DNA of 64,000 bases. It comes from a virus. The position numbers and the translations under genes were made by a program. The stretch lies in IMG/VR virus record IMGVR_UViG_3300031485_000046; one strand, written 5' to 3'. The notes beneath the pieces are model-generated. The model was not told the origin of the DNA. It was given only the letters and a program-made list of their open reading frames with translations, and made no database searches. Of the stretch, positions 5,799 to 63,963 are shown one piece after another; positions within the stretch are counted from its first letter, which is position 1; each line of letters begins with the position of its first letter.

Positions 5799-6360
5799 GG
5801 CAATCCTCCTGCATTAGGGCTTTCAGTTCGTTTATCGTATCCCAAATTCTTTCGTGTGTCCAACCTTTCTCTCTGAGGATGTGGCGCAATTTCCCACGAA
5901 CTGCTCTACCGCTCATGCTACCATATTCTTCTTGTGCCTCTATAATCATATCATATACGATTTTGGCAGAAGGACTCATACGATCCATCTTTTCTTCCCA
6001 TTCTTCTTTAGCATCTACCGATTCAGGTGATGGTATAGTATATTCCATTTCTTCATCGAAAAAAGTACATGGAACCTTTTTCTGATGATACAGGTAATTG
6101 TTCAGTTTGGATTTTACGCACAAGGCAATCCAATTTATCAATGGTACGTTTTTATCCGCTTTGTATGTATTCAAGGCAACTGTATAGCCAACTGTAGCCT
6201 CAGAAAAAAGTTCCTCAAAATCTACTCCAGAGGTTTTATTGTACGACCAAGCTAATTTCCTTAGAAAGTTCTGGTACTTTTTATAGGTAGCGGTATCAGT
6301 CACAATATATTCCTCCTTTAGGATTTTCTGCTGTACTTGTGATGGTGTGGGCAGTAACAA
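5767..6360 (-). CDS. putative sigma-70-family-like transcription factor
   Basis: 197 aa; segment 'FLRKLAWSY..FEELFSEATVGYTVALNTYKADKNVPLINWIALCVKSKL' resembles sigma region 2; weak, motif-level only. Confidence 0.4.
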   Translation of the reverse strand: MLLPTPSQVQQKILKEEYIVTDTATYKKYQNFLRKLAWSYNKTSGVDFEELFSEATVGYTVALNTYKADKNVPLINWIALCVKSKLNNYLYHQKKVPCTFFDEEMEYTIPSPESVDAKEEWEEKMDRMSPSAKIVYDMIIEAQEEYGSMSGRAVRGKLRHILREKGWTHERIWDTINELKALMQEDCREYNPIVQGF

Positions 6361-12347: not shown

Positions 12348-12914
12348 ATGGCATATCGAAAATCAGGGAGACCTTTAGCAGTAGCAGAACCGTGGAATGA
12401 ATCAATCCCAGAAAGGGCGTATGATCTTTGCCTTCTAGGATTGCGTGATGCCGATTTAGCCACGGCATTCGGAGTTTCTATATATACCATTGATAAATGG
12501 AAACAGACTCATCCAGAGTTTAGAGAAGCACTATCCAGAGGTAAAGAACAAGCTGACGCTAAAGTGGCAGACGCACTTTACCATAAGGCAGTAGGCTATG
12601 CCCATAAAGCTGTGGACATCAGAATAGTTGACGGCGAGGTAGTGAAAATACCATACACTAAAATCTATCCACCAGATACTACTGCCTGCATATTCTGGTT
12701 GAAGAATAGGCAAAGACAGTACTGGACGGATACCAAGCAAAATGTTCATACTGGTACAGTGGGTGTGGAACATACTATGAGACGTCAACTTGACCTTTCT
12801 GATTTCTCCAAAGAAGAACTTGCCCTAGCAGAAAAACTAGCCTCTAGGATGCTTCAGGAGGGTACTCAGGATGCAGAGTTTACAGAAGAGGGGGAGAATG
12901 ACGGGGATGAGTAA
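12348..12914 (+). CDS. terS: terminase small subunit
   Basis: 188 aa directly upstream of and overlapping large terminase; HTH-like N-terminus 'LATAFGVSIYTIDKW' and 'IFWLKNRQRQYW' segment typical of small terminases. Confidence 0.65.
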   Translation: MAYRKSGRPLAVAEPWNESIPERAYDLCLLGLRDADLATAFGVSIYTIDKWKQTHPEFREALSRGKEQADAKVADALYHKAVGYAHKAVDIRIVDGEVVKIPYTKIYPPDTTACIFWLKNRQRQYWTDTKQNVHTGTVGVEHTMRRQLDLSDFSKEELALAEKLASRMLQEGTQDAEFTEEGENDGDE

Positions 12915-14466
12915 ATATGAACGTAAGGACGCCTTAAAACGCCAAAGAGAAAACATCATCCCAAAATCAGATAGGTTCCAAGCATTACTTTTGAACCCAT
13001 TGCAGATAAAAGCAGAAAAATGCCGTAGGTCCCTATTTGAATTTATGAAAGAATTCTGGCCAGAAGTATCCACAAGTGACCCTACATGGAATTGGCATCT
13101 AGAATACCTAGCTAACGAACTGGAAAGGATGATGTATAGAGTAGCAAACAGACAACCAAAAGAATACGACCTCATAATAAACATAAGCCCCGGTACCACA
13201 AAGTCTACCCTATGTTCCATAATGCTGAATGCATGGGTGTGGGCTAAATGGCCTTGGCTCCGATTCATCAACGCATCCTATTCTGGAGCCCTATCTCTGG
13301 AACATTCAGAATTGTGTCGTGACCTTATACGGTCAGAACGATACAAAAGGTTATTCCCGTATTTGGAAATAAAGCAAGACAAGGATACCAAAACTAACTT
13401 TAAAATTTTATATGATGAAGAGCGTCTGGATTCCATAACAGGCGAAGCATCTACACTAAAAAAGAGTGGTGGTAACAGATACTCCACCTCCGTAGGCGGC
13501 ACCTTGACTGGATTCCATGCTGATGTACTGTTAGTAGACGATCCATTGGATCCGCAAAGAGCTGTATCCGACGTGGAAGTCCTTAAAGCCAACACATGGA
13601 TAGATCAGACACTATCTACCAGAAAGGTAGATAAAGCGGTAACACCAACCATAATCATAATGCAAAGGCTCCATCAGAATGACCCTACGGGTTATCTGCT
13701 ATCCAAGAAGAATAAAAAGATAAAGCATATCTGCCTACCAGGTGAAATACGGAATTACAGGAAAAATTTGAAACCTAAAGCCCTAGCCAAGTATTATAAG
13801 GATGATCTGTTCGACCCTATAAGAATGCCATGGAAAGTCCTTGACGACCTAAGAGTAGACCTTGGTGAATTCGGGTATGCTTCCCAGATCGGCCAATCCG
13901 CAGTATCAGACAAGGGCAACTTATTCAAGGTAGAACACTTTCAAATCATCCATAGTATGGTACCAGACCCAGACATAGTAAGATCCATACGATACTGGGA
14001 CAAAGCCGGTACAGCTGGAGCTGGAGCATACACGGTGGGGGTACGAATGCTTGCATTGAATAATGGAAAATTCCTTATCACGGATGTTAAAAGAGGGCGG
14101 TGGTCCACAGAACAACGGGAAGCCATCATCAGACAGACTGCAGAAGCCGACGGTACAGACACAATAATCTGGCATGAACAAGAACCAGGTTCAGGCGGAA
14201 AAGAATCCGCAGAAGGCACTATAAGAAACCTAGCTGGATACACCACGTATGCAGATAGGGTAACTAGAAACAAGGAAATGAGAGCGGATCCATATTCAGT
14301 CCAAGTAAATAATGGTAACGTACTGTTACTATATGCTCCGTGGAACCAAGACTTCATAGAAGAGCACAGATACTTCCCAAATTCAACATATAAGGATCAG
14401 GTAGACGCAGCCTCAGGAGCGTTCTCTAAGGCAGTACGGAAAAAGATAGCCGGTGCGATAGGATAA
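12907..14466 (+). CDS. terL: terminase large subunit
   Basis: ~520 aa; ATPase P-loop-like 'NISPGTTKST', acidic 'LLVDDPLD', C-terminal nuclease-like region; SD AGGGGGAG before ATG 12907 (track ORF starts 12871). Confidence 0.8.
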   Translation: MSKYERKDALKRQRENIIPKSDRFQALLLNPLQIKAEKCRRSLFEFMKEFWPEVSTSDPTWNWHLEYLANELERMMYRVANRQPKEYDLIINISPGTTKSTLCSIMLNAWVWAKWPWLRFINASYSGALSLEHSELCRDLIRSERYKRLFPYLEIKQDKDTKTNFKILYDEERLDSITGEASTLKKSGGNRYSTSVGGTLTGFHADVLLVDDPLDPQRAVSDVEVLKANTWIDQTLSTRKVDKAVTPTIIIMQRLHQNDPTGYLLSKKNKKIKHICLPGEIRNYRKNLKPKALAKYYKDDLFDPIRMPWKVLDDLRVDLGEFGYASQIGQSAVSDKGNLFKVEHFQIIHSMVPDPDIVRSIRYWDKAGTAGAGAYTVGVRMLALNNGKFLITDVKRGRWSTEQREAIIRQTAEADGTDTIIWHEQEPGSGGKESAEGTIRNLAGYTTYADRVTRNKEMRADPYSVQVNNGNVLLLYAPWNQDFIEEHRYFPNSTYKDQVDAASGAFSKAVRKKIAGAIG

Positions 14467-14522
14467 ACATATAAAGGTAACCAAACAGATAACCCGTTTA
14501 GCCGTAGGCTATAGGGATAAAT

Positions 14523-14568
14523 AATGATACAGATAGATATGGATTCACCTATCTGTATCATTTTTTTA
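14523..14568 (+). terminator. rho-independent terminator downstream of terL
   Basis: Perfect 11-14 bp stem GATACAGATAG/CTATCTGTATC (14526..14536 / 14549..14559), 12-nt loop, TTTTTTT run 14561..14567. Confidence 0.75.
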
Positions 14569-15078
14569 TGGTAAAATACTCATACCGTAAGGTAAGCTAT
14601 GATATAGTAAAAATTGGGTAGTTTGGTAGTTATAGAGGTAGTCAGATAGAATAGGAAAAAAACTATCCATAAAAATAACATAGATAGGTAGACTAATATG
14701 GTATAATCTATAGAAACCTATATATCAATACAATCCATACTTTTACTATCCAAATAAGCTAATAATCCAATATAATCCAGATAATCCTAAACAGGTACAT
14801 ATAGTCAATTATAATAAGATACAGAAGAGGCAATCCCAAATCATACTAAGATGGTATACCAATATATCTGATACACCATATAACCTATCTCATGTAACCA
14901 TACGAATATGCATATGGATAAACAGTAAGAACGACATAATACAAATATACACCAATTCAATCAAGCTAATAGGAACATACGCAATAAGCTAATATCCGAT
15001 AAGCCTAAACAGGTACATAGTCAATATCAATATCTAGTCAATAGTAAACTAACATGCGAGCCTCCCTAAGGTAGGTCC

Positions 15079-15104
15079 CATAAATTGGTACCATAAATTG
15101 GTAC
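15079..15104. repeat. tandem 13-bp repeat CATAAATTGGTAC x2 (contains GGTACC palindrome)
   Basis: Two adjacent identical 13-mers read directly. Confidence 0.6.
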
Positions 15105-15439
15105 CATATCCTGGTTTACCAGCATGTGGTAACCTTACCTCCATCCTTACCATCACCTATACCACCATTCATCTGGATCTAATCTGCCTATACCCATATT
15201 TAATCTATGGTATTTAATAAATGGACACCATATTTCATAAATGGATAGCCAAAACCATACAAGCCATATCCTATTCCGTATTCCAATCCAATATATAGAT
15301 ACCTATACCTCCACTTCACCATGTACTGGGAAACCCAGTAATTGGTATAAAAAAATGGGACCTAAGTGTGGTAACCTAGATTTATCTATGTATGATCGTT
15401 TATATAGTGAAACCGAGATTTATACCTATTATTTTGTCC

Positions 15440-15900
15440 TCCACTATACCAATACGGTGGTATGCTGGATTGTAATCAGGAAATTCAAATACGGAGTAGA
15501 CCTCGATGTTTTACTATGTATATATAGAACGTATCTTTATAACAGTACCTACCAACTATCCACTACGGTGGTGTGTTGGATTGTACTTATAAATATGTGG
15601 AAAATAGAAAATGGGAGGTATTTCGATGTTTTACTATGTAGAACCGACGGTCTGTTTTTGTCAGGAATCTTCCAACTATCCACTACGGTGGTATATTGGG
15701 AGATACTTACCGAAACGTGTATGATATGAAATGGGAGGTATTTCGATGTTTTACTATGCATATATAGAGATATTGATTGGTTCCCATTTACCCTATATCT
15801 TACCCAGTATCCACTACGGTGGTATGTTGGGTAGTATTAATCCGTAGTATGGGTAGGTACTGTCTAGATTGTTTATCTATATATAGAGAATGAATAAGGT
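15440..15900. repeat. ~110-130 bp tandem repeat array, 4 units, each with blocks 'CGATGTTTTACTATG' and 'TATCCACTACGGTGGT'
   Basis: Block A at 15504, 15624, 15744; block B at 15451, 15560, 15680, 15811; track ORFs 15241..15729(+) and 15549..15761(-) merely translate the repeats. Confidence 0.75.
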
Positions 15901-16410
15901 GTGTCCATTCCCAAAATACCTCAGGCCCTCCATTATCTAGAATTTTCCCCAATTATAAAAATTTGTCAACCTCTGGCAGCTAAATGGAGTATAAGTATCC
16001 TACGGATACATGTATAAAAATGAAATCTTGGACACGTATCCAACGGATTATTTTATAAAAATGGGATTGGATTATTTTTATTTATACAGGTTCAATTTGA
16101 GAAAATGCACCTGTTTGAGTTTTCGATGGGTAATTGGTATAACAATAGTTGGATTATATAAAAACGGTATGGGATAATACCAGACCCGTTTTGAAGGCAT
16201 AAATTGCATAAATCAGTTCCGTTTATTTTTTTATTTCCTATGGATGGTACCGAATATTTCGAGGAGAAAAGGAATCCATAAAAATCATACGAGGTTTTTC
16301 ATGCTACCTAATCCAAAATACGTGGCGAATTTTCGGCTCCGTAATCGTTTTTCTAGAGGTGAGCGGTGAATTCATACCGGTAGAAAATGAGCGCCTTCTA
16401 GCGCACCGCT

Positions 16411-16449
16411 GGCGGAGAAACTCATTGGCGGAGAAACTGGCGGAGAAAA
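16411..16449. repeat. iteron cluster GGCGGAGAAA(C) x3
   Basis: Copies at 16411..16421, 16427..16437, 16439..16449; same 11-mer as at 4117..4142. Confidence 0.65.
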
Positions 16450-16457
16450 TGGATGGA

Positions 16458-16548
16458 TTTTTCTGTTTTTCTGTTTTTCTGATTGTTGTACATCGTTTCT
16501 ACATTCTACATTCTACATTCTACATTCTACATTCTACATTCTGCATTT
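16458..16548. repeat. microsatellite-like tandem repeats: TTTTTCTG x3 then TACATTC x6-7
   Basis: 8-mer repeats about 16458..16482; heptamer array 16500..16541 with a degenerate seventh unit to 16548. Confidence 0.7.
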
Positions 16549-17060
16549 CAGAAGAATGCATGTGGTACTTTATAAGATGCATGTATGCAATGTCATATGC
16601 ATCCTTAATTGTCTCCTGATTACTATACAATTATACACTATTCCTATTCCTGTTTCAATCGTAACAGATATTTTACTATTATATAATAATCTATAGTATT
16701 GTGTCATATTGTAGAATATTCTTATATTCATGAATATCAGACAAGCATAATGCAGAATGCATATTATACAATGCATTATTCAGCTATATTTTTCACAAGC
16801 ATTTTTTAGTAGTACAATGCATAATGCAGAATGCATCATGCATTATTCAATGAAACATTTCACAAGTGTTCATACAGTGCATACAATACATTCTGCATCA
16901 TGCATCATGCATTATTCAGCTATATTTTTCACAAGCATTTTTTAGTAGTACAATACATTCTGCAATATGCATTGTATAGCATGTATTATTCAATGAAACA
17001 TTTCACAAGTGTTACTGTATCCGAAGAGTATACAATGCATTTTTCAATGAAATATTTCAC
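16540..17060. repeat. ATGCAT-dense region with ~126-140 bp direct repeats (units contain 'TCAGCTATATTTTTCACAAGC' and 'TTCAATGAAACATTTCACAAG')
   Basis: About a dozen ATGCAT hexamers in ~500 bp; 19-mer TCAGCTATATTTTTCACAA at 16780 and 16906 (also 4831); track ORFs here are repeat translations. Confidence 0.65.
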
Positions 17061-17191
17061 AAGCGATACTGTGATCGAATTGTATCTGAATGACTATACA
17101 ATTCACTATTATTTTATAAAACTCTATAGTATTGCAGAATACAGTAGAATTCAGTAGAATTATATTAAGTGTATAGTCTTTTCATGCATAG

Positions 17192-17219
17192 TTGACATTC
17201 TATCGTAGAGTGCTATACT
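17192..17219 (+). promoter_or_regulatory. sigma70-like promoter TTGACA-N16-TATACT
   Basis: TTGACA 17192..17197, TATACT 17214..17219, ~120 nt upstream of small gene start 17337. Confidence 0.55.
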
Positions 17220-17336
17220 GTACTCGTAGCAAGCGAGCGAGCAAGTTCTTTGACAACTGAAGAAGCAAGCTCATAACAGAGTAACACTTCTTCAGAACAT
17301 ACGCGCACAACGTTGCGCAGAAAGAGAGTGTGTAGC

Positions 17337-17675
17337 ATGACAACGAGCAGCAAGAAGAACGTAAACAGTAAGAAAGCTGAAATAGTCGAACAGAAAGCAG
17401 TTGAAGTAAAGAAAGAAGAAGTAAGAGAAGCAAAGAAGATTAGCAATACTCAGAAGTGTGCTGATATGATCATGCAACTTGCGAAAGACGCTAAGTATAC
17501 TCGCAGTGAAATTTGTAATGCTGTTTCAGATGCACTAACAGCATTAAGCATAGTCACAGTAAAGACTATGCTTTCAGACTTGCAGAACAGCAAGTATGCA
17601 AGACGTTATAGCACTCATACTATCGCAGTAAACAAAGAAACAAAGATTGTAACAGTAGCAAGTGAGATAAAATGA
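17337..17675 (+). CDS. hypothetical small protein
   Basis: ATG 17337 with SD AAAGAGAG 8 nt upstream (track ORF starts at TTG 17313); 112 aa, Lys/Glu-rich N-terminus. Confidence 0.5.
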   Translation: MTTSSKKNVNSKKAEIVEQKAVEVKKEEVREAKKISNTQKCADMIMQLAKDAKYTRSEICNAVSDALTALSIVTVKTMLSDLQNSKYARRYSTHTIAVNKETKIVTVASEIK

Positions 17676-17884
17676 AGTATCAGCATGTTGAACGTTCGCA
17701 AGCTCTCGCAGTAAGTGACGTTGAAACTTTGCAGAATATTGCAAAAAGACGTCTGATCGATTTGAAACAGCTTGCAAGAGAAGCAGACTCTTTACTTGTC
17801 TTTTCAGTAATAAGAAATACATGTATTCAAATCGATCGAAGCATCGATGATGCACTTGAAAACGCAAGAAAATTACTGAAGTAG
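17672..17884 (+). CDS. hypothetical small protein
   Basis: 70 aa; ATGA start/stop overlap with preceding gene; followed by strong terminator. Confidence 0.5.
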   Translation: MKYQHVERSQALAVSDVETLQNIAKRRLIDLKQLAREADSLLVFSVIRNTCIQIDRSIDDALENARKLLK

Positions 17885-17889
17885 TACAA

Positions 17890-17940
17890 AAAAAGATAGT
17901 CAAGTATCTACAATTCGATACTTGACTATCTTTTTATCTC
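17890..17940. terminator. strong (bidirectional-capable) rho-independent terminator
   Basis: Perfect 15-bp stem AGATAGTCAAGTATC/GATACTTGACTATCT (17894..17908 / 17917..17931), 8-nt loop, flanking A-run and T-run. Confidence 0.8.
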
Positions 17941-17960
17941 ATTTGAAAGAGAGTGATACT

Positions 17961-18284
17961 ATGTTAGATAATCAGTATGAATTACATCAAAAGATACAAA
18001 AAATAGAACACAAGCATATCAGATTACATGCAAGCAATTGTATGTACAAATTGATGAATATTCAATTGTTACTTGAAGAACAGATTAATCTACTCATTTC
18101 TGATATTGTAGCAAATGATGCTTCTGTTAGTGAAATATTGCTAACAGAACGTCAAAGTACATTTGATAATGAACTTTTTGCGATAACGACAAAAGAAGAT
18201 AGAAAAGCAATAGCAATACTGCATAATACTATAATCGATAGTATGAATGCAGTAAGAAAGACAATCATCTATACAGACGAATAA
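17961..18284 (+). CDS. hypothetical small protein
   Basis: ATG 17961 with SD GAAAGAGAG 7 nt upstream; track start (TTG 17922) lies inside the terminator stem so was moved. Confidence 0.5.
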   Translation: MLDNQYELHQKIQKIEHKHIRLHASNCMYKLMNIQLLLEEQINLLISDIVANDASVSEILLTERQSTFDNELFAITTKEDRKAIAILHNTIIDSMNAVRKTIIYTDE

Positions 18285-18323
18285 AATTACACAATAGAGC
18301 ATAATTGATAGCAATTGAATAGA

Positions 18324-18361
18324 AAAGAGTAGTCAATACTAGACTACTCTTTTCTTTTTTA
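18324..18361 (+). terminator. rho-independent terminator
   Basis: 11-bp stem AAAGAGTAGTC/GACTACTCTTT (18324..18334 / 18342..18352), 7-nt loop, T-run to 18360. Confidence 0.7.
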
Positions 18362-18745
18362 TTCATGCATACAATGCATGATGCATCCTGCACTATGCAT
18401 AGTATAAGCGTTCATAGTAGCATTTGATAACATAACACTACACTATTTATTACAATTAGACAATATACTACAATATGATAGTGTAGTGTGTATTGTCTAT
18501 TCTATACACTACAATATAGACAAGTATACACTACAATATAGACAAGTATAGAATAGAGTATAATAATCTATAGTATGCTACACTATATAGCAATATAATA
18601 TAATAATATATAATTGTATAGTAAAGCAGATACAATTCAATACAATGACTGCGCTAGTATACAATGCATGATGCATGATGCATCGTACACAATGCATAAT
18701 GTAAAATCGATTTTACACGTTGCAGAATGCATGCTGGCTCCTGGC

Positions 18746-18902
18746 CCCCTCTAAAATTGTGACAAATTTTTCTGGATATTAAAATGGGTAATCCATTATT
18801 TTCTAAAGCATATTCATTATTTATTCTACGTATCTTTCACACACCCCTCGTAAAATTGCTACTGATTTTTCCCAATACTAAAGTGGGTAATCCATTATTT
18901 TC
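18746..18902. repeat. two ~58-bp direct repeats sharing 'AAAATTG..TTTTTC..TAAA.TGGGTAATCCATTATTTTC'
   Basis: Copies at 18746..18803 and 18844..18902; inverted partial copy 'TAATGGATTA..ACCCA' near 18961; partial copy near 19110. Confidence 0.6.
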
Positions 18903-19426
18903 GATATATCTATTCTGTATGACTGTATAGATAGTATAAGATGCAGTATCCAATTTTAACTAATGGATTAATATACCCAATTTACTCATACTATACGTAT
19001 CTTCATGGATCCGTTTTCTTTCGTCTTTATTTTTACCATACCCCGTCATTCTGTATGAATTTATCCAAAAATAACCGCATAAATATTTTGTAAAAATTTA
19101 TATGGGAGTTAAAATGGGTTGATTAGATCAGTAGAGAGGTTAGATCACACTAGGGAGTTAGATACGATGCATCCTAGCCCGGATCCTGATAGGCTAGGAT
19201 GCATATAGAAACTATGTTTGTCGTAATATATCTTGAAAACGCATCAGATTCGTTTCATACTGTGCGATTTCCTTGCTTATGGAAGCTGTTCGTTCTGTTT
19301 CAGACGTTGTTTCTATCGTCTAGAGTGAAAAAGATCGAATACCGTGCAAGGATTTAACGTGTCATGCCATCCCATTCGGTTGTTCCCTCCGTCCTTGCGA
19401 CTTTCCTATAAGGGATGGAAACCGGG

Positions 19427-19645
19427 TCATTTCGCCCGCTCCTCCCAGAACCGTCTGCGTCGCTCCTCCCTGTGACGCTTGATATTCTCCCGCACCCTCT
19501 GCGTGCGGGGCGGGAACGTGTTCAGATGGGTCAGCACCGGCTCCACGCTGACAGCTCTGCCGAATTCCCTCTCCCATTCCTGGGCGTAGATTTCCTCGTA
19601 GGATAACATTTCGCGAAATCTGAGCCCCGTGCATCGTCCGCTCAT
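19427..19645 (-). CDS. small basic hypothetical protein inside a GC-rich islet
   Basis: 72 aa ORF starting 1 nt after kdsB stop; local GC visibly about 60% versus ~40% surroundings; no recognised motif. Confidence 0.3.
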   Translation of the reverse strand: MSGRCTGLRFREMLSYEEIYAQEWEREFGRAVSVEPVLTHLNTFPPRTQRVRENIKRHREERRRRFWEERAK

Positions 19646-20436
19646 TCCTTACCCTCCTTTTTTTCTATAATTTCATCATATTCATTTTCTTTACCAGAGT
19701 TTATTATACAACGAACAGCTTCCAAATCAGCAGGAGTATCTACACTAGGTCCAACTTTTTTTGCTCTTGTTATTTCTACTTTAATGGAAAAATCATGTTC
19801 TAATATTCTGAGCTGTTCCAGTGATTCTGCTGATGCCAAAGGTGTTTGTGGCATTTTGGCATAATAATGGATTAAGAAACGTCTAGTAAATCCATAAATT
19901 CCTATATGTCGGTAGATGGGATATACTTCTTCCGGATCTCTAATAAAAGGGATAGGAGACCTACTGAAATATAAAGCATCTCCATTTATTCTGAATGCCA
20001 CTTTTACTACCGATGGATCATTGATAGTAGCGGTATCTGTAATAAGGGCACATATCGTAGCAGATTCCGTAGCCCTATTTTCAGTTTTATAAAATAATGA
20101 TATTACTTCATCAATCATACAAGGATTAAGTAATGGTTCATCCCCTTGTATGTTTATCACTATATTATTATTAGAGAATTTTTTAGCTATTTCCACAACT
20201 CTACTAGTTCCGTTTGTATGATTTGGAGAAGTTAGCATAGCTTCTCCACCGAAATTATTTACAGCCTGCACGATTCTTTCATCGTCAGTAGCTACAATCA
20301 ACCGGTCAAGTAAAGTAGATCGTGAGGCTCGCTCGTACACTCTCTGGATCATTGTTTTTCCGCATATATCAGCTAGAGGTTTACCGGGGAGCCTTGTAGA
20401 ATTGTATCTAGCGGGGATAACTCCTAAAGTTATCAT
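19642..20436 (-). CDS. kdsB: 3-deoxy-manno-octulosonate cytidylyltransferase (CMP-Kdo synthetase)
   Basis: 264 aa; near-collinear with KdsB hallmark segments 'VIPARYNSTRLPGKPL', 'VATDDERI', 'QGDEPL', 'ALYFSRSPIP', 'HIGIYGF', 'EQLRILE', 'VDTPADLE' (compared from memory with E. coli KdsB). Confidence 0.85.
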   Translation of the reverse strand: MITLGVIPARYNSTRLPGKPLADICGKTMIQRVYERASRSTLLDRLIVATDDERIVQAVNNFGGEAMLTSPNHTNGTSRVVEIAKKFSNNNIVINIQGDEPLLNPCMIDEVISLFYKTENRATESATICALITDTATINDPSVVKVAFRINGDALYFSRSPIPFIRDPEEVYPIYRHIGIYGFTRRFLIHYYAKMPQTPLASAESLEQLRILEHDFSIKVEITRAKKVGPSVDTPADLEAVRCIINSGKENEYDEIIEKKEGKE

Positions 20437-21847: not shown

Positions 21848-23308
21848 GTGAGTAGGATAGAAAATATCAGTACCAACGAATTGGTTGGGCAATTACAGCG
21901 GATTACAGCTATGGCTGAACTGGCTACAAGAATGAATGTCGGTGCTAGGATGGGAATGCAGTATGACGGCCAACGGGATATTGCAAAAGCTCTTGGCTAC
22001 CCACAAACAATACGGTACAACGACCTCCTTGCCGCATATACCCGTCAGGATATGGCGAAAGCCATTATAGATCGTCCCGTAAAATCTACTTGGCGTGGAG
22101 ATTTCAAGCTAGTAGAAACCCACAGGGACGATGATACGCAACTCGAAACAGCTTGGTCTACATTATATAGGAAATTGCACATAAAACAGAATTTCCTTAG
22201 AGTGGACAAGCTAGCCTGCCTCGGTAATTATGCTCTTCTTTTTCTTGGTTTCAATGATGTGAATAGTCCTGAAGAATTGATACGACCTGTTTCTGCTGGA
22301 GTAGGACGTGAATTGCTGTATTTGAAACCGTTTGGACAGAATGTCATTCAGATCAAAGATTGGGAAGATGATACAAGTTCACCTGAATATGGAATGCCGC
22401 TTATTTATGAAGTAGACATTGGAGAAGCATCATCTAAAAAGAGCCGAACTGTCAGCATCCATCGGTCAAGGATTGTTCATGTAGCTTTCGACCTACTTGA
22501 ATCAGAGTATGAAGGTGCTCCTGTTCTAGAAGTTGTTTTTAACCGTCTGAAAGACCTTGAAAAGCTAGTAGGCGGTTCTGCTGAAATGTTCTGGAGAGGT
22601 GCTAGACCTGGATATGCAGGTAAAATTGATCCAGAATACATGCTGACGAAAGATACGGAAGAGGGATTGAAACGCCAGCTGGATGAGTTTGAAAATAATC
22701 TGCGAAGGATACTCATGCTTGAAGGTGTTACACTCGATAGCCTTGAGCCGCAGGTAGTTGACCCGTCTATGCACGTTGATATCCAGATTCAGATGATTTC
22801 TGCTATTACTGGTATTCCTAAGAGAATTCTTACAGGAAGTGAGCGAGGTGATCTTGCTTCTACGCAAGACAAAGATAACTGGCTCGACCTTATCCAAATG
22901 CGACGGGAAGAATATGCTGAACCTAAGATCATTCGAGCAACCATTGACCGTTGTATTGAATTTGGTGTGCTTCCTAAGCCTGAAAAGGAAACATACAAAA
23001 TAAAATGGCAGGATCTTTATGCACCGTCTGTTAAGGATCAAGCGGACATTGGGCAGATACGTTCGCTTGCCTTGAAACATTATACGTACAATCCTGAAGC
23101 AGAGCAGTTTATCCCGTTTGAAGCGTTCCTTACATTCTTCCTTGGTTTGGAAGATGAGGAAGTGGAGTATATCAAAAAGCTCCAGCAAACAAGTGAAAGG
23201 ATATTGACGCCTGAATTAAAGGAACTTGCGAATGAAAATGCACCAACACGGAGAGAACGCCCTCCGCGGAGAGGAATACCTCGAGAGGATGAAGAACTAG
23301 AAAAGTGA
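21848..23308 (+). CDS. portal protein (DUF1073-like)
   Basis: 486 aa first gene of late operon, followed by head-morphogenesis and capsid genes; acidic C-terminus; family assignment from remembered patterns and gene order. Confidence 0.65.
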   Translation: MSRIENISTNELVGQLQRITAMAELATRMNVGARMGMQYDGQRDIAKALGYPQTIRYNDLLAAYTRQDMAKAIIDRPVKSTWRGDFKLVETHRDDDTQLETAWSTLYRKLHIKQNFLRVDKLACLGNYALLFLGFNDVNSPEELIRPVSAGVGRELLYLKPFGQNVIQIKDWEDDTSSPEYGMPLIYEVDIGEASSKKSRTVSIHRSRIVHVAFDLLESEYEGAPVLEVVFNRLKDLEKLVGGSAEMFWRGARPGYAGKIDPEYMLTKDTEEGLKRQLDEFENNLRRILMLEGVTLDSLEPQVVDPSMHVDIQIQMISAITGIPKRILTGSERGDLASTQDKDNWLDLIQMRREEYAEPKIIRATIDRCIEFGVLPKPEKETYKIKWQDLYAPSVKDQADIGQIRSLALKHYTYNPEAEQFIPFEAFLTFFLGLEDEEVEYIKKLQQTSERILTPELKELANENAPTRRERPPRRGIPREDEELEK

Positions 23309-47191: not shown

Positions 47192-47842
47192 TTATCTAAT
47201 CTGGAATGTTTTTGTAAATCCGTTTCTACTTTTGCACCATCCTACTAGCCAATAACAAAATGGTGTATCACTCAATGCGATCAATATTTTAACAACCCAC
47301 TGGCTCATTATCATGGAAAATAAAACAGGCATGGGCATAATTCCATAAAATGCAATAACGATAAAGATTACCGTATCGAAAAACTGGCTAGATATGGTAC
47401 CTACGTTATTTCTAAGCCACAAATGTTTTCCATGTGTTAAATCCTTTAGCTTATGAAATACCCATACATCATTCAGCTGGCTGACAAGATAAGCAGTCAA
47501 TGAAGCTCCAGTAATCCTACCAACTCTTCCAAAGAGTTCTGTAAAGAATTCCTGCCTCTCATAGAAAGGAGCGGCGGGAAGCATAACAGCGATAAACCCT
47601 AGTGACATAGCAAGCAGACTACAAAAGAATCCTGCCCATACAACCCTTGTAACTACTTTCTTACCCCATACCTCTCCAATCACATCAGTCATAAGAAAAG
47701 TAATTGGGTATGCGATAACACCTGCTGGTAGAATGAAATCCCCAAACATAAACAGTTTTGTTGCCAATACGTTTGCAGTTACCAACGATGTCACAAATAC
47801 TGCAACCAGTGTGATGAATGTTCTTGGAATCTTGAGTTCCAT
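47192..47842 (-). CDS. yhhQ: queuosine-precursor transporter, YhhQ/DUF165 family
   Basis: 216 aa polytopic membrane protein; segments 'MTDVIGEVWG', 'ASLTAYLVSQLNDVWVFHKLKD', 'SQFFDTVIFIVIAF' align with E. coli YhhQ (from memory). Confidence 0.7.
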   Translation of the reverse strand: MELKIPRTFITLVAVFVTSLVTANVLATKLFMFGDFILPAGVIAYPITFLMTDVIGEVWGKKVVTRVVWAGFFCSLLAMSLGFIAVMLPAAPFYERQEFFTELFGRVGRITGASLTAYLVSQLNDVWVFHKLKDLTHGKHLWLRNNVGTISSQFFDTVIFIVIAFYGIMPMPVLFSMIMSQWVVKILIALSDTPFCYWLVGWCKSRNGFTKTFQIR

Positions 47843-56262: not shown

Positions 56263-58080
56263 TTATTTGAAATGGTAATCTCCCTTCTCATTCCAAGAAC
56301 AATCAACAGGACACACTTCTGCTTCTACTTCCAAGGGTACATTTATCCAGCTCCAGTGCTTAGGTAAATCTTCACAAGTAATCCTATGAACAGTAGACGC
56401 AACCATATCTAATTCGTCAGGATGCACATCCAACACCATTGCGTCATGTATCTGTCCGATCAATCTGGATTTCCAGTTCTGTTCTCTGGATATCTTGTCA
56501 ACCTGAATGAACGACCATAACAGACAATGAAATGCACTTCCCTGAATAGGAATATTTATGCATTCATTCCTACGCATGATACCAGAACATCTGAATCCTG
56601 TGTACATGCTCACATACCCGTTTTTTTGATACCCTTCCCACCACTTGTCTTTCCAACGATTATACACTTTGAATCGCCTATTCCAAAAATCATCTTCAAT
56701 TTTCTTGATATGGTCCGTAAACTTATCGAAGGAATCTAGCTTGTTTGCAATCAAGTGGTCGGAAATATGACCTCCGTCATGCTCAATGCCTTCACCTTTC
56801 TTCCATTTGCCTTTAGATAATCCGCACCATTTACAAGCAATATTTTCGGCGCAGTTTACATAATAGTCACCATAGAACTGCGGAAATACAAATCCGTTCT
56901 TTGCCGCTTGCCTCATCATTTTATGCGATGGTATACTCTTGTCTAACTTATCAAGTACAAATATCTGACAAGCCATATCACCGTGCATATCCGATGAAGG
57001 ATCTTCAATGTACTTTCTCATAACAGGGTCATGATGGTAACACTCGCTGATTCTTACTTCCACTCCTGAATAGTCTATTTCAAGTAGCTGGTGACCTGGC
57101 TTAGGAAATATCGCTTTGCGAGTAATCTCCATAGCCTCTTTATCTCGCTTGGGAATATTTTGGAAGTTTATCCGCTCCGATGAATTATGTACGCATATTT
57201 GGTTCACGATAAAATTATGATATTTTTCCACTTCAATATCGTACACATCTACCGGCTCATCAAGGTACTCTATTGTGTGGTCTGTATGATTAGACAATAC
57301 CTTATTAGAAAGACGTGTATCTGATAACGCCCTCGCTTGCACGTATGTTCCATCTATTAGACGGATTTTGTGCTCAGGTGTCACATCTAAGTATCCTTTC
57401 CCACCTCCACCGTTTATAGAGTAATGGATTCGCACAACTTTCTTATGTCCTGTTTTGCCAGCCCATATAACTTTTTGAATAGAAGGGCGGAGTTTATCGT
57501 CAAAACAATACACATAATCACCCTTCTTTACATTTTCAATAGGGGTCCCTTCTGGTTGTGCTTCAAAATCTTTCATTACCAATACTTTAGATCCTTTAGC
57601 TACACAAGAGCGAAATGTCTTTACTGTATGCAAATTAAAGAAAGGATGCAAGTATCCGCCTACTTGTTCTCTTATGAAAGCATCCAGATACGTATCTCGC
57701 ACCTTTTTCAATTTGCGCATTTCCAAAATCCACTTTATCTCAGGAATATCAATCTGGGAAAGTGCTTCATCGTCTGTTGCACCCTTGCCAGATGGTGTCA
57801 ACTTTGCAGGGGTGATTTTCCTAACATTGTACAAAAGGTGTGCTAACTGCCAATTAGAATCAGGGTTAGCCTTAGCACCATACACCTTCGTCCAATGCAT
57901 ATAGAATTTAGTATCCCTGAGTTTTCTATCCAATCGTGCTATTTTTTTGTCAAGGTACTCTTTTTTCTTTAAGCAGTAATCAACATCAATCCGCATTCCT
58001 TCTTGTTCTGCCCTCGCAAAAGCAAGGATGCCATCTTGCAATAGCTGATATGCTTCAGGAAGATTAGGTGTCAGTTGCAT
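56263..58080 (-). CDS. polA: family A DNA polymerase, polymerase-domain subunit (intein-containing)
   Basis: Motif A 'LLEIDYSGVEVR', motif B 'RQAAKNGFVFPQFYG', motif C 'QIHDAMVLD'; SD AAGGAGGG 8 nt before ATG 58080 (track start 58107). Confidence 0.85.
   Translation of the reverse strand: MQLTPNLPEAYQLLQDGILAFARAEQEGMRIDVDYCLKKKEYLDKKIARLDRKLRDTKFYMHWTKVYGAKANPDSNWQLAHLLYNVRKITPAKLTPSGKGATDDEALSQIDIPEIKWILEMRKLKKVRDTYLDAFIREQVGGYLHPFFNLHTVKTFRSCVAKGSKVLVMKDFEAQPEGTPIENVKKGDYVYCFDDKLRPSIQKVIWAGKTGHKKVVRIHYSINGGGGKGYLDVTPEHKIRLIDGTYVQARALSDTRLSNKVLSNHTDHTIEYLDEPVDVYDIEVEKYHNFIVNQICVHNSSERINFQNIPKRDKEAMEITRKAIFPKPGHQLLEIDYSGVEVRISECYHHDPVMRKYIEDPSSDMHGDMACQIFVLDKLDKSIPSHKMMRQAAKNGFVFPQFYGDYYVNCAENIACKWCGLSKGKWKKGEGIEHDGGHISDHLIANKLDSFDKFTDHIKKIEDDFWNRRFKVYNRWKDKWWEGYQKNGYVSMYTGFRCSGIMRRNECINIPIQGSAFHCLLWSFIQVDKISREQNWKSRLIGQIHDAMVLDVHPDELDMVASTVHRITCEDLPKHWSWINVPLEVEAEVCPVDCSWNEKGDYHFK
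57184..57606 (-). other. mini-intein (141 aa, Hint domain only) in the 'TxRxSS' motif of the polymerase
   Basis: Residues C168..N308 of track ORF: block A 'CVAKGSKVLV', block B 'TPEH', block F 'VYDIEVEKYHNFIVN', block G 'CVHN' followed by Ser; flanks join to 'TFRS|SSERINFQNIP' like Pol I 'TGRLSSTDPNLQNIP'. Confidence 0.8.
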
Positions 58081-59342
58081 CCTATGTACCCTCCTTGCTG
58101 AATCCATCGCATTTGTTTAGATGCTAACCGGTAAGTGAACAAACTATCCATACCACAGTATATCAATAGTTTATTCCAAATATCAGATCCTACAGGAACA
58201 TCAAGCAATTTGTTCATGGAATTGCTATCTTTATCATCCGCCCCTTTAAGATATGGAGCGACCTCATCATCATACCCTGCTACACCAAAATTGATATAGG
58301 TTTGTATCTTCAATCCTGTGATGTCTGGTCTGTTATCAAGAATGTGTGTAGCCAACATAGTATCCCATATCCAGTTTTTTACTTCATACCCCAGAATATT
58401 TTGTGTCCATGTGTGTTCAAACTTCAGATTTTGGGCAATCTTTCCTATCTTGTCTGATTGCAAAATTTCCTTAAGCAGTCTATTTCCTTTCTTACTTTTA
58501 GGCATCCCAAAAACTATTGCATCTTCAGGATTACTACACATGGACATGCAGATGATTTTGTGCTTGCTTGTATCATGCGGTTTAAGGCCCGTCGTTTCAT
58601 AATCAATAGCAATAGAAAACGGAAACTTTCTAGAAAGAAACTCTTCAAAAATTCCTACTAGCTCACTTTCTGATTTTACTATCTTGATAGCCGTCATTTC
58701 ATCTGGATATGTTTGCATAGACATGTCCACTGTATTTAATGCCCTGTCAAGGTCCTGTTTCCATACTGTTCGATATTCCTGTGCATCTTGTTTTTCTACA
58801 AACTCTGGATGAAATATCGGGCAGATCCACGTATTGTATTTCCTATCTGGAATAGTAAATCCTCTCCATTTATTCATTCCACCTAAATTCTTTGTCCAGA
58901 TAGAACCTATCACGGAGTTTAATGCTAGTTCACCTACAAGAATTATCACTTTAGGTTTATACTGCTCAATAGTAGATAGCACTCTTCGTCGGCAACATTG
59001 AACTTCTTTTGTCCACGGATTGGTGGTTTCCTTGGACCCTGAAGCATAGCAAGACAAAGCAAAGAGATTCAGACAGTCTTTGAACAAATCAACGCCTCTA
59101 CGTTCAAATTCTCGCCTAAGCGTTGTTCCAAATCTGTCTTGCCACGGTTTGCCTACTCGATCATCTCTACTGCTTGGCATATCACCAATGACCATTATTT
59201 TCTTTTCAAATTCCCCGAATGGTGCCATTCTAGGAGACGAAATATCTTTATACAACCCACAAGAAGCGCAAGAGAAAGCCTTATTACCACTAGGCCTAGT
59301 TTTAGATTTAGTTTCTTCTACTGAAAAGAATCCACTAGCCAT
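58071..59342 (-). CDS. DNA polymerase N-terminal subunit: UDG-like (family 4-type) domain + 3'-5' exonuclease domain
   Basis: 423 aa; 'CASCGL' and 'FHPEF' UDG-family-4-like elements with degenerate motif A ('GDMPS'); Exo I 'IAIDYETTGL', Exo II 'NLKFEH', Exo III 'YCGMDSLFTY'. Confidence 0.75.
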   Translation of the reverse strand: MASGFFSVEETKSKTRPSGNKAFSCASCGLYKDISSPRMAPFGEFEKKIMVIGDMPSSRDDRVGKPWQDRFGTTLRREFERRGVDLFKDCLNLFALSCYASGSKETTNPWTKEVQCCRRRVLSTIEQYKPKVIILVGELALNSVIGSIWTKNLGGMNKWRGFTIPDRKYNTWICPIFHPEFVEKQDAQEYRTVWKQDLDRALNTVDMSMQTYPDEMTAIKIVKSESELVGIFEEFLSRKFPFSIAIDYETTGLKPHDTSKHKIICMSMCSNPEDAIVFGMPKSKKGNRLLKEILQSDKIGKIAQNLKFEHTWTQNILGYEVKNWIWDTMLATHILDNRPDITGLKIQTYINFGVAGYDDEVAPYLKGADDKDSNSMNKLLDVPVGSDIWNKLLIYCGMDSLFTYRLASKQMRWIQQGGYIGCN

Positions 59343-61930: not shown

Positions 61931-62374
61931 TCAGTTACCTGTTCCGTCGTACTCGGCAATCACCGAAATATCAGTACCACCTCTGCGATTGAAATTAGCC
62001 TCTATTCGCATGTGGTACGGTTTGCAAGCGTTCGACAGATCGTCCAGTATTTTGTTTGTAACAGACTCCATAAACGCTCCGTGCTGACGATATGCTCCCA
62101 TGTATATCTTGAGTGCTTTCGTTTCCAAACAAAAATCCTTTGGAAAGTATCGAATCGTGATAGTGCCAAAATCAGGATTTCCTGTACGCGGACACAGACT
62201 GGAAAATTCCGTGAATACGAACTCCGTGGCGTATTGCCTGTCTTTGCACGGATTATCAAATACTTCAAGAAGAGCTGGATCTGGATTATTGTACCTGTCG
62301 TACGGTACGACTGTTCCGAGGTTTTTCAGATGGTCTACATTCACTTTTCTATCCATTGTTTGCACCCTCCTCAT
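61931..62374 (-). CDS. queF: NADPH-dependent 7-cyano-7-deazaguanine reductase (unimodular QueF)
   Basis: ~145 aa; catalytic-Cys region 'FSSLCPRTGNPDFGTITIRY' and QueF motif-like 'ETKALKIY'. Confidence 0.8.
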   Translation of the reverse strand: MRRVQTMDRKVNVDHLKNLGTVVPYDRYNNPDPALLEVFDNPCKDRQYATEFVFTEFSSLCPRTGNPDFGTITIRYFPKDFCLETKALKIYMGAYRQHGAFMESVTNKILDDLSNACKPYHMRIEANFNRRGGTDISVIAEYDGTGN

Positions 62375-63044
62375 AGAATACTGGGTCGATCAGATTGTTT
62401 TCTGCAAAGGCCTCAAGGCGTTCATAACAACTTCCACATTTTCCGCAAGGATTCGGTTGGTTCTTGTAACAAGTTCTTGTAAGGTGATATGGTGCGTTAT
62501 TTGCAATACCATACTGCACTATCTGACTTTTAGACATGTGAAGGAACGGTGCAAGTATATTCACATTTCTATCCGTACCAAGATAAATCGCTGTATCCAT
62601 TGCTTTATGAAATTCTGGGCGACAATCAGGGTAAATAGCATGATCGCCTCTATGAATTCCTATAGCAATATTCTCTATACCTTTTGACCACGCCATACCG
62701 GCTAGGATCGACAGGAACACTAGATTACGAGCAGGTACCACCGTCTGACTCATATTCGATGATTCATAGTGTCCTTCCGGTATTTCTCCACCGCTTAGAA
62801 GCAGACTAGATTCCATTCCAGTAAATGCTCCGGACAGGTCTACAACTTCGTAGGTCAATTCGCAAGGAACGGCAGACACATAATATTTCAATACTGCGTC
62901 TGCCGCTCTTCGTTCGTACACATTGTGTTTGCTACCGTACTGGAAATTTACACAATGGATTTTCTTGAATTCCTTGCGAATAAGCCAAGCAAGAACTGTT
63001 GCAGAATCCAGTCCTCCTGAGAAAGAAAGGACTGCGGAACGCAT
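62349..63044 (-). CDS. queC: 7-cyano-7-deazaguanine synthase
   Basis: Start at ATG 63044 (track ORF 62349..63188 carries an implausible Arg/Lys-rich extension); PP-loop 'SFSGGLDS'; zinc site 'CYKNQPNPCGKCGSC'. Confidence 0.85.
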   Translation of the reverse strand: MRSAVLSFSGGLDSATVLAWLIRKEFKKIHCVNFQYGSKHNVYERRAADAVLKYYVSAVPCELTYEVVDLSGAFTGMESSLLLSGGEIPEGHYESSNMSQTVVPARNLVFLSILAGMAWSKGIENIAIGIHRGDHAIYPDCRPEFHKAMDTAIYLGTDRNVNILAPFLHMSKSQIVQYGIANNAPYHLTRTCYKNQPNPCGKCGSCYERLEAFAENNLIDPVFYEEGANNG

Positions 63045-63045
63045 C

Positions 63046-63963
63046 TTACTTCTTCTTTCCAGCCTTCTTGCCAGCTTTCGCTTCCTTAGCCGGAGCGGTC
63101 TTTGCAGGCGCTTCCTTCTTTGCAGAAGCTTTCTTTTCCGCCATTTCTGCCTTCGCCTCCTTCTTTTTAGAAGATTTACTACCACCATCGTGCTTCACGA
63201 TTTCCTTAGTGATCTTACTGCCTTTCTCACACTTGATATCCGTGAACTTCACGATGTTGCCATCTTCCTTGTCAATGTAGATAAGCACAGGGAAGCGGCA
63301 ATATTTAGGATTAGTCCCATCAGAAAGAATTGTAGAAAGAGCGGCGATGGTTGCGTCGGGGAACTGCTTTGCCGCAAGTTCGATCAGATCCTTTTTGCTG
63401 TACCGACCCTCATTGATAAGGTCGATAAAAAATTCGATCCTTTTGGCAGTCTTATTGCCACCAAATATCTCATCCTTCGTTTTCGTGGGCTTATCAGATT
63501 TTGCAGGCTTTTCTGCCTTCGGAGCCTTAGCAGGCTTTTCTTCCTTGGCTTTACTCTTGCCCTTCTTAGGAATAGGAAGTACCTCTATTTCGTCTTCCTC
63601 TTCTTCCTCTACATCGTCACCGTCTTCGACATCTTCGTCCTCATCGCTTTCGTCCCCATCTTCCCCTTCCTCGTTGACCCCTTCATCGTCTTCGTCTTCA
63701 TCGTCAGCTTCTTCGTCCCCTTCGACTTCTTCCTCATCCGCATCCTCCTCGTCGGCATCCTCTTCCTCTTCATCAGCATACTTAGCCTGAATCTGTGCAA
63801 GAATATCCATCGTTTCCTCGGAAAGTCCATCCTCTTCGCTTACAGCTTCAGAAGCCTCAAGCAGTTCAGCTTCCAGTTCGTCAGTACCGAGCTTTACATC
63901 AATGGGAGGCTCGATAATAGTATTAATCTCCTTAGCCGCCTTAACCAGTTCACTTTTCTTCAT
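63046..63963 (-). CDS. hypothetical protein with ~70-residue poly-acidic tract and Lys/Ala-rich histone-H1-like C-terminus
   Basis: 305 aa; D/E run about 63560..63780; C-terminal 'KKEAKAEMAEKKASAKKEAPAKTAPAKEAKAGKKAGKKK'. Confidence 0.6.
   Translation of the reverse strand: MKKSELVKAAKEINTIIEPPIDVKLGTDELEAELLEASEAVSEEDGLSEETMDILAQIQAKYADEEEEDADEEDADEEEVEGDEEADDEDEDDEGVNEEGEDGDESDEDEDVEDGDDVEEEEEDEIEVLPIPKKGKSKAKEEKPAKAPKAEKPAKSDKPTKTKDEIFGGNKTAKRIEFFIDLINEGRYSKKDLIELAAKQFPDATIAALSTILSDGTNPKYCRFPVLIYIDKEDGNIVKFTDIKCEKGSKITKEIVKHDGGSKSSKKKEAKAEMAEKKASAKKEAPAKTAPAKEAKAGKKAGKKK

Follow-up and report, generated by a model that had tools for sequence, protein, structure and literature searches.

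The block between the terminase and portal genes

The 64,000-nt stretch of the IMG/VR virus record IMGVR_UViG_3300031485_000046 was analysed here (hereafter the window, to which all coordinates refer), following an earlier note that had pointed to clustering of the palindromic hexamer ATGCAT near 16540-17060. The window carries a phage genome with the order TerS (small terminase, 12348-12914), TerL (large terminase, 12871-14466) and portal (21848-23308), and a structural module that extends to ~44.6 kb. The ATGCAT arrays lie between TerL and the portal, in the block 14467-19361, which is the only large non-coding, repeat-rich region of the genome. Four arrays (I to IV), in which ATGCAT recurs in a 7-bp register, bracket a small operon whose conserved gene, gp1, encodes a winged-helix protein. 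These arrays are most likely protein-binding arrays.

Excess of ATGCAT and its 7-bp register

The whole window contains 43 ATGCAT sites, versus 26 ± 5 in dinucleotide shuffles, and 26 of the 43 fall in the 4.9-kb block. They form groups of twelve (16556-17040), four (18365-18400) and five (18664-18732), the remaining sites of the block being those at 14908, 15756, 17184, 19167 and 19199. At the background rate outside the block, 17 sites in 59.1 kb, 0.15 sites would be expected in 16540-17060 (Poisson P = 2e-19) and 0.69 in 16400-18800, where 22 were found. Local dinucleotide shuffling (1000 replicates) gave a mean of 2.5 sites and a maximum of 8 for the first interval, and a mean of 3.4 and a maximum of 11 for the second. 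ATGCAT ranks first among the hexamers of 16400-18800 and TACAAT second. This confirms the extreme enrichment described in the earlier note, together with the further clusters that it placed at ~18360..18420 and ~18660..18735.

The earlier note had proposed a Markov-model count and had named two outcomes that would refute its observation, an equal frequency of the hexamer elsewhere in the genome and the disappearance of the clusters after correction for the tandem duplication. Outside the block 17 sites were found versus 18-30 predicted by Markov models of different order, so ATGCAT is neither enriched nor clearly avoided there. When the second copy of the 136-bp duplication was removed, 19 sites were left in 2.27 kb versus 0.65 expected. 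Neither outcome was therefore observed, since the rate in the rest of the genome is low and the excess outlasts the removal of the duplication. The ~130-bp direct repeats in which the clusters were said to sit exist for the first one (16749-16836 / 16885-16972, 83% identical, built of alternating 67-69-bp units) and not for those at 18365 and 18664.

The key regularity is the 7-bp register: among the 21 pairs of sites no more than 42 bp apart, 16 have a spacing of 7, 14, 21, 28 or 35 bp. The heptad consensus is A-T-G-C-A-T-N, in runs of three to seven. When a heptad run was defined by a match of at least 4/6 to ATGCAT at successive 7-bp steps, phased runs were found to start at 16499, 16743, 16817, 16886, 16953, 18374, 18664 and 18692, that is, eight in 2.4 kb versus seven in the other 59 kb. 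Most runs open with the motif rTAyACAATrCAT.

Array I begins with a degenerate part (16497-16547) consisting of (TTCTACA)x7.3, which reads AATGTAG/AATGCAG on the minus strand (TRF period 7, 97% matches) and forms a seven-heptad run. It is oriented opposite to arrays II-IV, and its left boundary, GATTGTTGTACATCGTTTCTAC, is kept in relatives. The ATGCAT part of the same array (16541-16602) holds the sites 16556, 16577 and 16597 plus the inverted motif CTGCATTTCAGAAGAATGCAT; in the related loci L051, L054 and L065 this part has grown to up to 11 ATGCAT-bearing repeats of ~37 bp. Array II (16743-17041, plus strand) is made of five 67-69-bp units with the composition TTTCACAAG, 14-24 nt, TACAAT, a heptad run and ATTCAAT/ATTCAGC. 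Its runs start at 16743 (three heptads), 16817 (five), 16886 (five) and 16953 (three), and a lone site is present at 17035.

On the other side of the operon, array III (18365-18400, plus strand; ATGCATACAATGCATGATGCATCCTGCACTATGCAT) directly follows the terminator of gp3 and contains a four-heptad run from 18374; this post-terminator position is kept in L029, L032 and L038. Array IV (18657-18733, plus strand) is composed of GTATACAATGCATGATGCATGATGCATCGTACACAATGCATAATG, the 16-bp palindrome GTAAAATCGATTTTAC (18701-18716) and GTTGCAGAATGCAT, in one 7-bp register from 18664 to 18727. The palindrome reads GCAAAATCGATTTTGC in L029, with paired changes that retain its symmetry. AT-rich spacers (24-30% GC) occupy 16600-16745 and 18400-18660. 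The gp1 operon and array III are enclosed by a 75-nt inverted repeat, whose left arm (17074-17148) is 71% complementary to the right arm (18567-18641); direct-repeat families related to it are also present. The right arm lies in a stretch of 24-30% GC that also bears the 22-mer TATACACTACAATATAGACAAG in 2.7 copies (18503-18562). A further palindrome at 19167-19204 has a perfect 13-bp stem, ATGCATCCTAGCC(N12)GGCTAGGATGCAT, with ATGCAT at both outer ends; its DNA fold has an energy of -14 kcal/mol (z = -5.4) and it is kept in L032.

gp1, its cassette and the adjoining promoters

The gp1 gene (17337-17675, plus strand) encodes 112 amino acids, comprising a disordered, basic, Lys/Glu-rich N-terminal tail of ~35 residues and a C-terminal winged-helix domain. 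In the AlphaFold2 model, obtained from an alignment of 38 homologs, pLDDT was above 90 for residues 37-110 and the topology was H-H-H-beta-beta. Foldseek retrieved only winged helices of the Fur/Mur/PerR, SarX and MarR types, all of them weakly (E ~0.2) and at the level of the generic fold, and sequence searches gave no match in Pfam, PHROG, NCBIfam or PDB. We found 114 homologs at 60-100% identity. The family is narrow, a search of 1.84 billion proteins at E <= 1e-3 giving only 15 representatives, and no known domains were found in its remote relatives. In IMG/VR and GTDB genomes gp1 was absent except for one small contig binned into a Methanolobus metagenome-assembled genome. Twenty-seven columns of the alignment are invariant in the winged-helix domain, the helix 3/wing region being nearly invariant, and two clades can be distinguished by their helix-3 variant, SDLQN and SDLHN. 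The distant homologs P0115, P0117 and P0118 lie on contigs of less than 1 kb, with other short repeats upstream and limited flanks. Upstream of the divergent P0118 gene (L071, 30-120) there are two CRISPR-like repeats, GTTCCCCCGCGTGCGCGGGGATAGACCC, 33 nt apart.

Downstream of gp1 lie gp2 (17672-17884, plus strand, 70 amino acids), with a homolog in L029 only, and, beyond a terminator hairpin at 17890-17935, gp3 (17961-18284, plus strand, 107 amino acids), which is followed by a second terminator hairpin (18321-18355). No homolog of gp3 was found in L029, L032 and L036, which hold other small genes at that place. Of the cassette, gp1 is the sole gene conserved in all the relatives, the small genes downstream being exchanged.

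The cassette is preceded by a sigma-70-like promoter on the plus strand, TTGACA-16-TGcTATACT (17192-17219), with 11/12 consensus match and an extended -10. A lone ATGCAT (17184-17189) lies 2 bp upstream of its -35 box, the whole element spanning 17184-17219. The promoter is kept in L029, L032, L043 and L065, and the abutting ATGCAT only in the SDLQN clade. Directly upstream of it there is a small tandem repeat, (AGAATTCAGT)x2.6 at 17136-17161, present three times in L065; the SDLHN clade has (CTATCGTTTGCTAGTGTATT)x3 instead (L032, 7830-7890), and additional copies of GTTTGCTAGTG flank its cassette on both sides.

Two leftward sigma-70-like promoters, P16658 and P16707 (16630-16707, minus strand), lie where AT-rich DNA separates array I from array II. 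They read TTGAAA-17-TATAAT and ATGACA-18-TATAAT, each with an 11/12 consensus match, and the former is retained in L065. From this promoter to a GCGC hairpin at 16391-16404, a leftward non-coding RNA of ~230 nt is predicted (~16622 to ~16390). It would contain (AAUGUAG)7, (CAGAAAAA)3 and three UUUCUCCGCC motifs resembling an anti-Shine-Dalgarno sequence; the three CUCC-type motifs are also found in L032.

A promoter-like sequence on the plus strand, TTGTGA-17-TAAAAT (P18757, 18757-18785), is located 24 bp downstream of array IV, is preceded by the conserved GC-rich GGCTCCTGGCCCCC and is kept in L029 and L032. Similar units occur again at ~18856 and ~19088. The repeated promoter-like CCCCTCnTAAAATTGnnAC...TAAAATGGGTAATCCATTATTTTC at 18745-18902 and 19094-19119 points rightward into DNA with no convincing open reading frame (ORF), and these units may mark further non-coding transcripts. 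Genome-wide, the sigma-70 matches of at least 11/12 include true divergent intergenic sites (12205-/12239+ and 21794-/21797+) as well as the array-adjoining ones.

Conservation of the arrays in related loci

Phased ATGCAT arrays recur together with gp1 in more than 20 related metagenomic loci. In nearly all loci whose flanks are long enough they border gp1 on both sides (L032-L040, L063-L065, L046 and L052), and they are found on its downstream side in L029-L031, L044 and L045. Other phage DNA in the gp1 loci, up to 12 kb, contains 0-1 phased arrays. The exceptions are L048, L053 and L066, with no arrays in the 1.3-1.9 kb downstream of gp1. In 28 further loci the density of ATGCAT is 2.7 per kb, versus ~0.3 per kb in the phage background. 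The 7/14/21/28-bp periodicity is common to both gp1 clades, and the heptad consensus is identical in SDLQN and SDLHN. Co-variation of the heptad core with the gp1 clade was considered and rejected: the hexamer ranks differ, yet the phased heptads share one consensus, so there is no specificity switch to exploit.

The DNA of the arrays cannot be aligned between clades, whereas their flanks align at 76-95%. The left side (14000-16410) is 84-95% identical to L029 and ~76% identical to L032/L038, and the right side (18290-19354) is 77-90% identical. In the interval of array II, L029 alone among the relatives compared has a match, a single one of 44 bp, and the copy number and arrangement of the arrays vary widely among relatives. 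It thus appears to be the motif and its phase, rather than the sequence, that is under selection. The coding region of gp1-3 is only 66-75% identical to that of the relatives; the ~2 kb that follow TerL (14467-16410) are more conserved than this, which implies unrecognised functional elements there.

The longer contigs have a constant order. TerS and TerL are separated from the gp1 cassette by 2.7-3 kb without coding sequence, and the cassette is followed by a further non-coding stretch of 1-2 kb, by variable genes on the minus strand and by the portal. Nearly all gp1 homologs are on contigs of less than 5 kb, and L029 has an N-gap at the expected place of arrays I/II, which fits assemblies breaking in the surrounding repeats. 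In L003, which stands for the nearest phages without gp1 and whose TerL is 59% identical, the portal comes straight after TerL without gp1, arrays or block, and a different repeat block lies upstream of TerS, at the contig end.

Heptad arrays of this kind were also seen in unrelated phage DNA. In the contig L016, intergenic TTATGCA heptad arrays (820-910, 2597-2685 and 6250-6300) precede an S24 LexA/CI-like gene and the gene of the major capsid protein, which shows that ATGCAT heptads occupy operator-like positions elsewhere. The unrelated viral contigs L021 and L012 contain multi-cluster TTATGCA/ATGCATT heptad arrays. A binder shared by the ATGCATNATGCATNATGCAT-bearing viral contigs (L010-L025) was sought and not found: the match in the array region consisted of translated repeats, and the two other matches came without a candidate DNA-binding protein. 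Nothing relevant was found in the literature on ATGCAT heptamers in phages.

Genome context

A Logan contig of 60,630 bp spans all of the window except 15638-19620, and another one of 2,545 bp spans 16925-19469. The 60,630 bp plus the 3,981-bp gap add up to a circular map of 64,611 bp, and the window therefore represents nearly the whole of this map (~64.6 kb). The value agrees with the 64,752-bp source contig, given a terminal overlap that would be ~141 bp. No nucleotide similarity to deposited phages was found in the phage database, and TerL and the portal are less than 60% identical to those of any deposited phage. No Rfam families or tRNAs were found in the window.

The leftward genes for replication and nucleotide metabolism include those for a DnaC/IstB-like ATPase, a primase, a sigma factor, an SNF2 helicase, PolA, a clamp and a clamp loader, and also RecA, SbcCD, ThyX, dUTPase, QueC, a QueF-like protein and YhhQ. 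The family A DNA polymerase (56263-58107) is interrupted by an intein. QueC, the QueF-like protein and the YhhQ/Vut_1 transporter (61931-63188 and 47192-47842) suggest, as judged from the gene set, a 7-deazaguanine modification of the phage DNA; neither DpdA nor TGT was identified among the ORFs scanned, about 50 in the window. This 7-deazaguanine-encoding lineage comes from anaerobic-digester-type metagenomes. Neither an integrase nor a partition gene was found among the scanned ORFs, and the phage is probably lytic.

AGGAGG ribosome-binding sites and the location of several of the best sigma-70 matches at divergent intergenic regions argue for a host with classical promoters, and no signal of Bacteroidota-type promoters (TAnnTTTG) was obtained. 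The sigma factor of the phage (5767-6360) is nearest to Firmicute sporulation sigmas. In spite of the affinities of TerL, the strong AGGAGG ribosome-binding sites and this Firmicute-like sigma factor speak against Bacteroidota.

Other features surround the arrays. At 15440-15840, ~120-bp tandem units hold four to five copies of the palindromic core ATCCACTACGGTGGTATGTTGG. Three mini-ORFs in tandem start at 15506, 15626 and 15746; they have 28-33 codons and share the opening MFYY, and GGGAGG lies 6 nt upstream of the latter two. They may be non-coding, because the third copy does not preserve the peptide. An island of 58-62% GC at 19362-19645, in an otherwise AT-rich region, contains a 72-amino acid ORF on the minus strand, whose start overlaps by 4 nt the stop of the phage-borne CMP-KDO synthetase gene kdsB (KdsB, 19642-20436). 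This island is the border of a strain-variable gene set, because homology to the relatives stops at ~19354.

The arrays as proposed cooperative protein-binding sites

Because the motif and phase are kept while the sequence turns over, a repeated recognition element is probably under selection, and the simplest such element is an array bound cooperatively by a protein. The leading candidate for the binder is gp1, because it is the sole conserved gene inside the bracket of arrays and has a DNA-binding fold. Transcriptional control is the most economical outcome, since the arrays are near four sigma-70-like promoters. We therefore favour, with a probability of roughly 0.4, a reading in which a phage protein, probably gp1, binds the arrays cooperatively and controls the neighbouring promoters, in a manner mechanistically similar to that of omega (see below). 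The proposal of the earlier note that the clusters are cooperative sites for a regulator is indirectly in line with this, on the basis of the 7-bp phase, the runs of three to seven, the conserved motif, the promoters and the winged-helix gene.

According to this model, a sequence-specific DNA-binding protein of the phage would coat the heptads cooperatively, often nucleating at rTAyACAATrCAT, and gp1, encoded between the arrays, would most likely be that protein. Arrays I/II on the left and III/IV on the right bracket the strongly promoted gp1 operon, beside or between P16658/P16707, P17192 and P18757. The resulting higher-order complex would most likely set promoter activity, by autoregulating or shutting off the small early cassette and the non-coding transcripts on its flanks, and looping between left and right arrays may also occur. 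A more detailed version, to which we give a clearly lower, tentative weight, regards the gp1 family as an undescribed, lineage-restricted winged helix that reads tandem ATGCATN, nucleates at rTAyACAATrCAT and spreads; the arrays bracketing the swappable early-gene cassette would then act as a looped on/off switch or insulator, and the system would be a convergent counterpart of omega built without a ribbon-helix-helix protein.

Several points weigh against the favoured model. The large arrays are 130-700 bp from the gp1 promoter, not over it, and the SDLHN clade lacks the ATGCAT that abuts this promoter. The heptad consensus stays the same across the gp1 clades and hence does not favour gp1 as the binder over any other conserved protein (TerS or a host factor). 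The 10- and 20-bp repeats that lie closer to the gp1 promoter do co-vary with the clade, and as a second candidate operator family they may be the true gp1 operators. The joint absence of gp1 and the arrays in L003 is the absence of the entire block. Heptad arrays are absent from the other promoters of the genome, so a cis-acting origin or packaging site would suit the data equally. Finally, a winged-helix monomer covers more than 7 bp, so that one protein per heptad would need an unusual geometry, and the true unit may be the 14-bp spacing that is frequent between exact ATGCAT sites.

Alternative functions of the arrays

The strongest competitor, although an unlikely one in our estimation, is an origin of replication, in which the arrays would be iterons bound by an initiator (gp1 or another phage protein) encoded between them, the AT-rich stretches (24-27% GC) would unwind and the neighbouring promoters would provide transcriptional activation. 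A phage with its own replisome needs an origin, and this block, the only large non-coding and repeat-rich one, offers arrays on both sides of a winged-helix gene with AT-rich spacers between them. A broad minimum of the cumulative GC skew lies at 12-22 kb, where gene orientation diverges, but the direction of transcription explains this skew equally well. The units of 7 bp do not correspond to Rep iterons, which are of 17-22 bp and phased at ~22 bp; gp1 is a single winged-helix domain of 112 amino acids with no match to Rep_3 or another initiator family; the helicase-loader-like gene and its large uncharacterised neighbour are 15 kb distant; and the block contains no perfect DnaA boxes.

Somewhat less likely than an origin is a role in packaging, with the arrays serving as recognition sites for the small terminase, or adjoining a terminal repeat, and gp1-3 being the first early genes injected. 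The block begins right after TerS and TerL, and the succession of terminase, repeats, a strong host-type promoter and small low-GC genes is that of the circularised T7 map. In addition, the relative with a 59% identical TerL has its different repeat block beside TerS and at a contig end, and assemblies break or have a gap in this region. Repeats that exceed the k-mer in length, together with neighbours that vary between strains, nevertheless account for such breaks, and the circular map is silent about ends. The distance from the terminase genes to the arrays is 2-4 kb, and instead of flanking one cut site the arrays are scattered over 2.2 kb.

We give little credit to the possibility that the TACAAT-led arrays are tandem early promoters, or that the arrays act inside non-coding transcripts. 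Three units match TTCACA/TTTTCA-17-TACAAT, but the spacing from TTCACA to TACAAT ranges from 15 to 41 nt. Reading TACAATGCAT as tandem promoters in the style of T7 A1-A3 was rejected, as only 7 of 53 distinct TACAAT/CACAAT-led arrays (window plus relatives) had a -35 box of at least 4/6 at 16-18 nt. As for RNA, the leftward promoters and the hairpin downstream of them hint at a non-coding transcript through array I; against this, no Rfam family is matched, the arrays have only a modest tendency to form hairpins (z = -1.3 to -2.7) and arrays III/IV lie downstream of terminators.

Least probable of all is the lack of any sequence-specific function, either as a microsatellite produced by slippage and tandem duplication, with which the varying copy number and layout of the arrays would agree but not the persistence of motif, 7-bp phase and position on both sides at 60-70% gp1 identity while the array DNA is unalignable, nor the excess left after collapsing the duplication, or as a cluster of restriction or methylation targets, as the earlier note had also suggested, to which the identity of ATGCAT with a type II restriction site (NsiI class) and an N6/N4 methyltransferase gene near the locus in L031 would lend themselves, but which does not fit because the hexamer is undepleted elsewhere, no DNA methyltransferase or restriction-enzyme family was found among the scanned ORFs and a 7-bp phasing restricted to one non-coding block stays unexplained.

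The block is conserved and splits nearly every short-read assembly of these phages. Whichever function applies, the arrays form a clearly delimited cis element that is open to testing and do not amount to a new kind of biology. If the favoured model is correct, a control module would be defined for the sole large non-coding block of an uncultured phage lineage; if the arrays mark an origin or a packaging site instead, they would be a landmark with which to orient these genomes. The swappable small early genes of the block are candidates for host takeover or anti-defence.

Comparison with known systems

Fur polymerises along arrays of 6-bp repeats. Regulators of this type (Fur/Mur/PerR, and SarX/MarR) are the best, if weak, structural neighbours of gp1, which differs from them in lacking sequence homology, a dimerisation domain and a metal domain.

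In the pac site of P1, PacA binds clusters of a palindromic hexamer, TGATCA/G, under the control of Dam methylation; the site takes up ~160 bp within pacA, where 4 + 3 hexamers flank a single cut. The arrays described here share with P1 pac and with the short repeats beside the terminal repeat of T7 the clusters of palindromic hexamers near the terminase, in a non-coding, repeat-rich junction. They differ from P1 pac in that more than 20 sites extend over 2.2 kb, 2-4 kb from TerL. No methyltransferase was found among the scanned ORFs, but a host enzyme may methylate the hexamer, as a P1-like, methylation-gated packaging signal would require.

The iteron replicons of P1 and F (oriR-repA-incA and oriS-repE-incC) likewise have repeats on both sides of a winged-helix gene, with AT-rich DNA adjoining, and tolerate changes in copy number. 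Their iterons, however, are of 19-22 bp, at about two helical turns, versus the 7-bp units found here, and their Rep proteins have two winged-helix domains in 250-290 amino acids, versus the 112 amino acids of gp1 with no Rep family match.

The closest parallel is omega of the plasmid pSM19035 (inc18). The omega consensus is 5'-WATCACW-3', and several omega arrays are located near promoters. The window differs in its heptad (ATGCATN versus WATCACW), in the fold of the neighbouring protein (winged helix versus ribbon-helix-helix) and in the replicon, a probably lytic ~64.6-kb phage versus a plasmid. No ribbon-helix-helix family was matched among the ~50 ORFs scanned, nor was a ParA/CbiA-type (delta) partner found among them, small ORFs having been scanned only in part. 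The system of the window is set apart by its heptad, by the fold of its protein and by the ParA that was not found, so the kinship with omega is an analogy of mechanism only. Omega (ParB of pSM19035) needs at least four contiguous 7-bp heptads, in either orientation, which it coats cooperatively (PMC9499535). The same traits recur in this block: contiguous 7-bp units, runs of at least four, either orientation, and arrays dispersed around a small regulator gene and its promoters. If gp1 coats these heptads, the task that omega performs with a ribbon-helix-helix protein would have a second solution of unrelated structure, which would give a clue to how short phased repeats can be read cooperatively.

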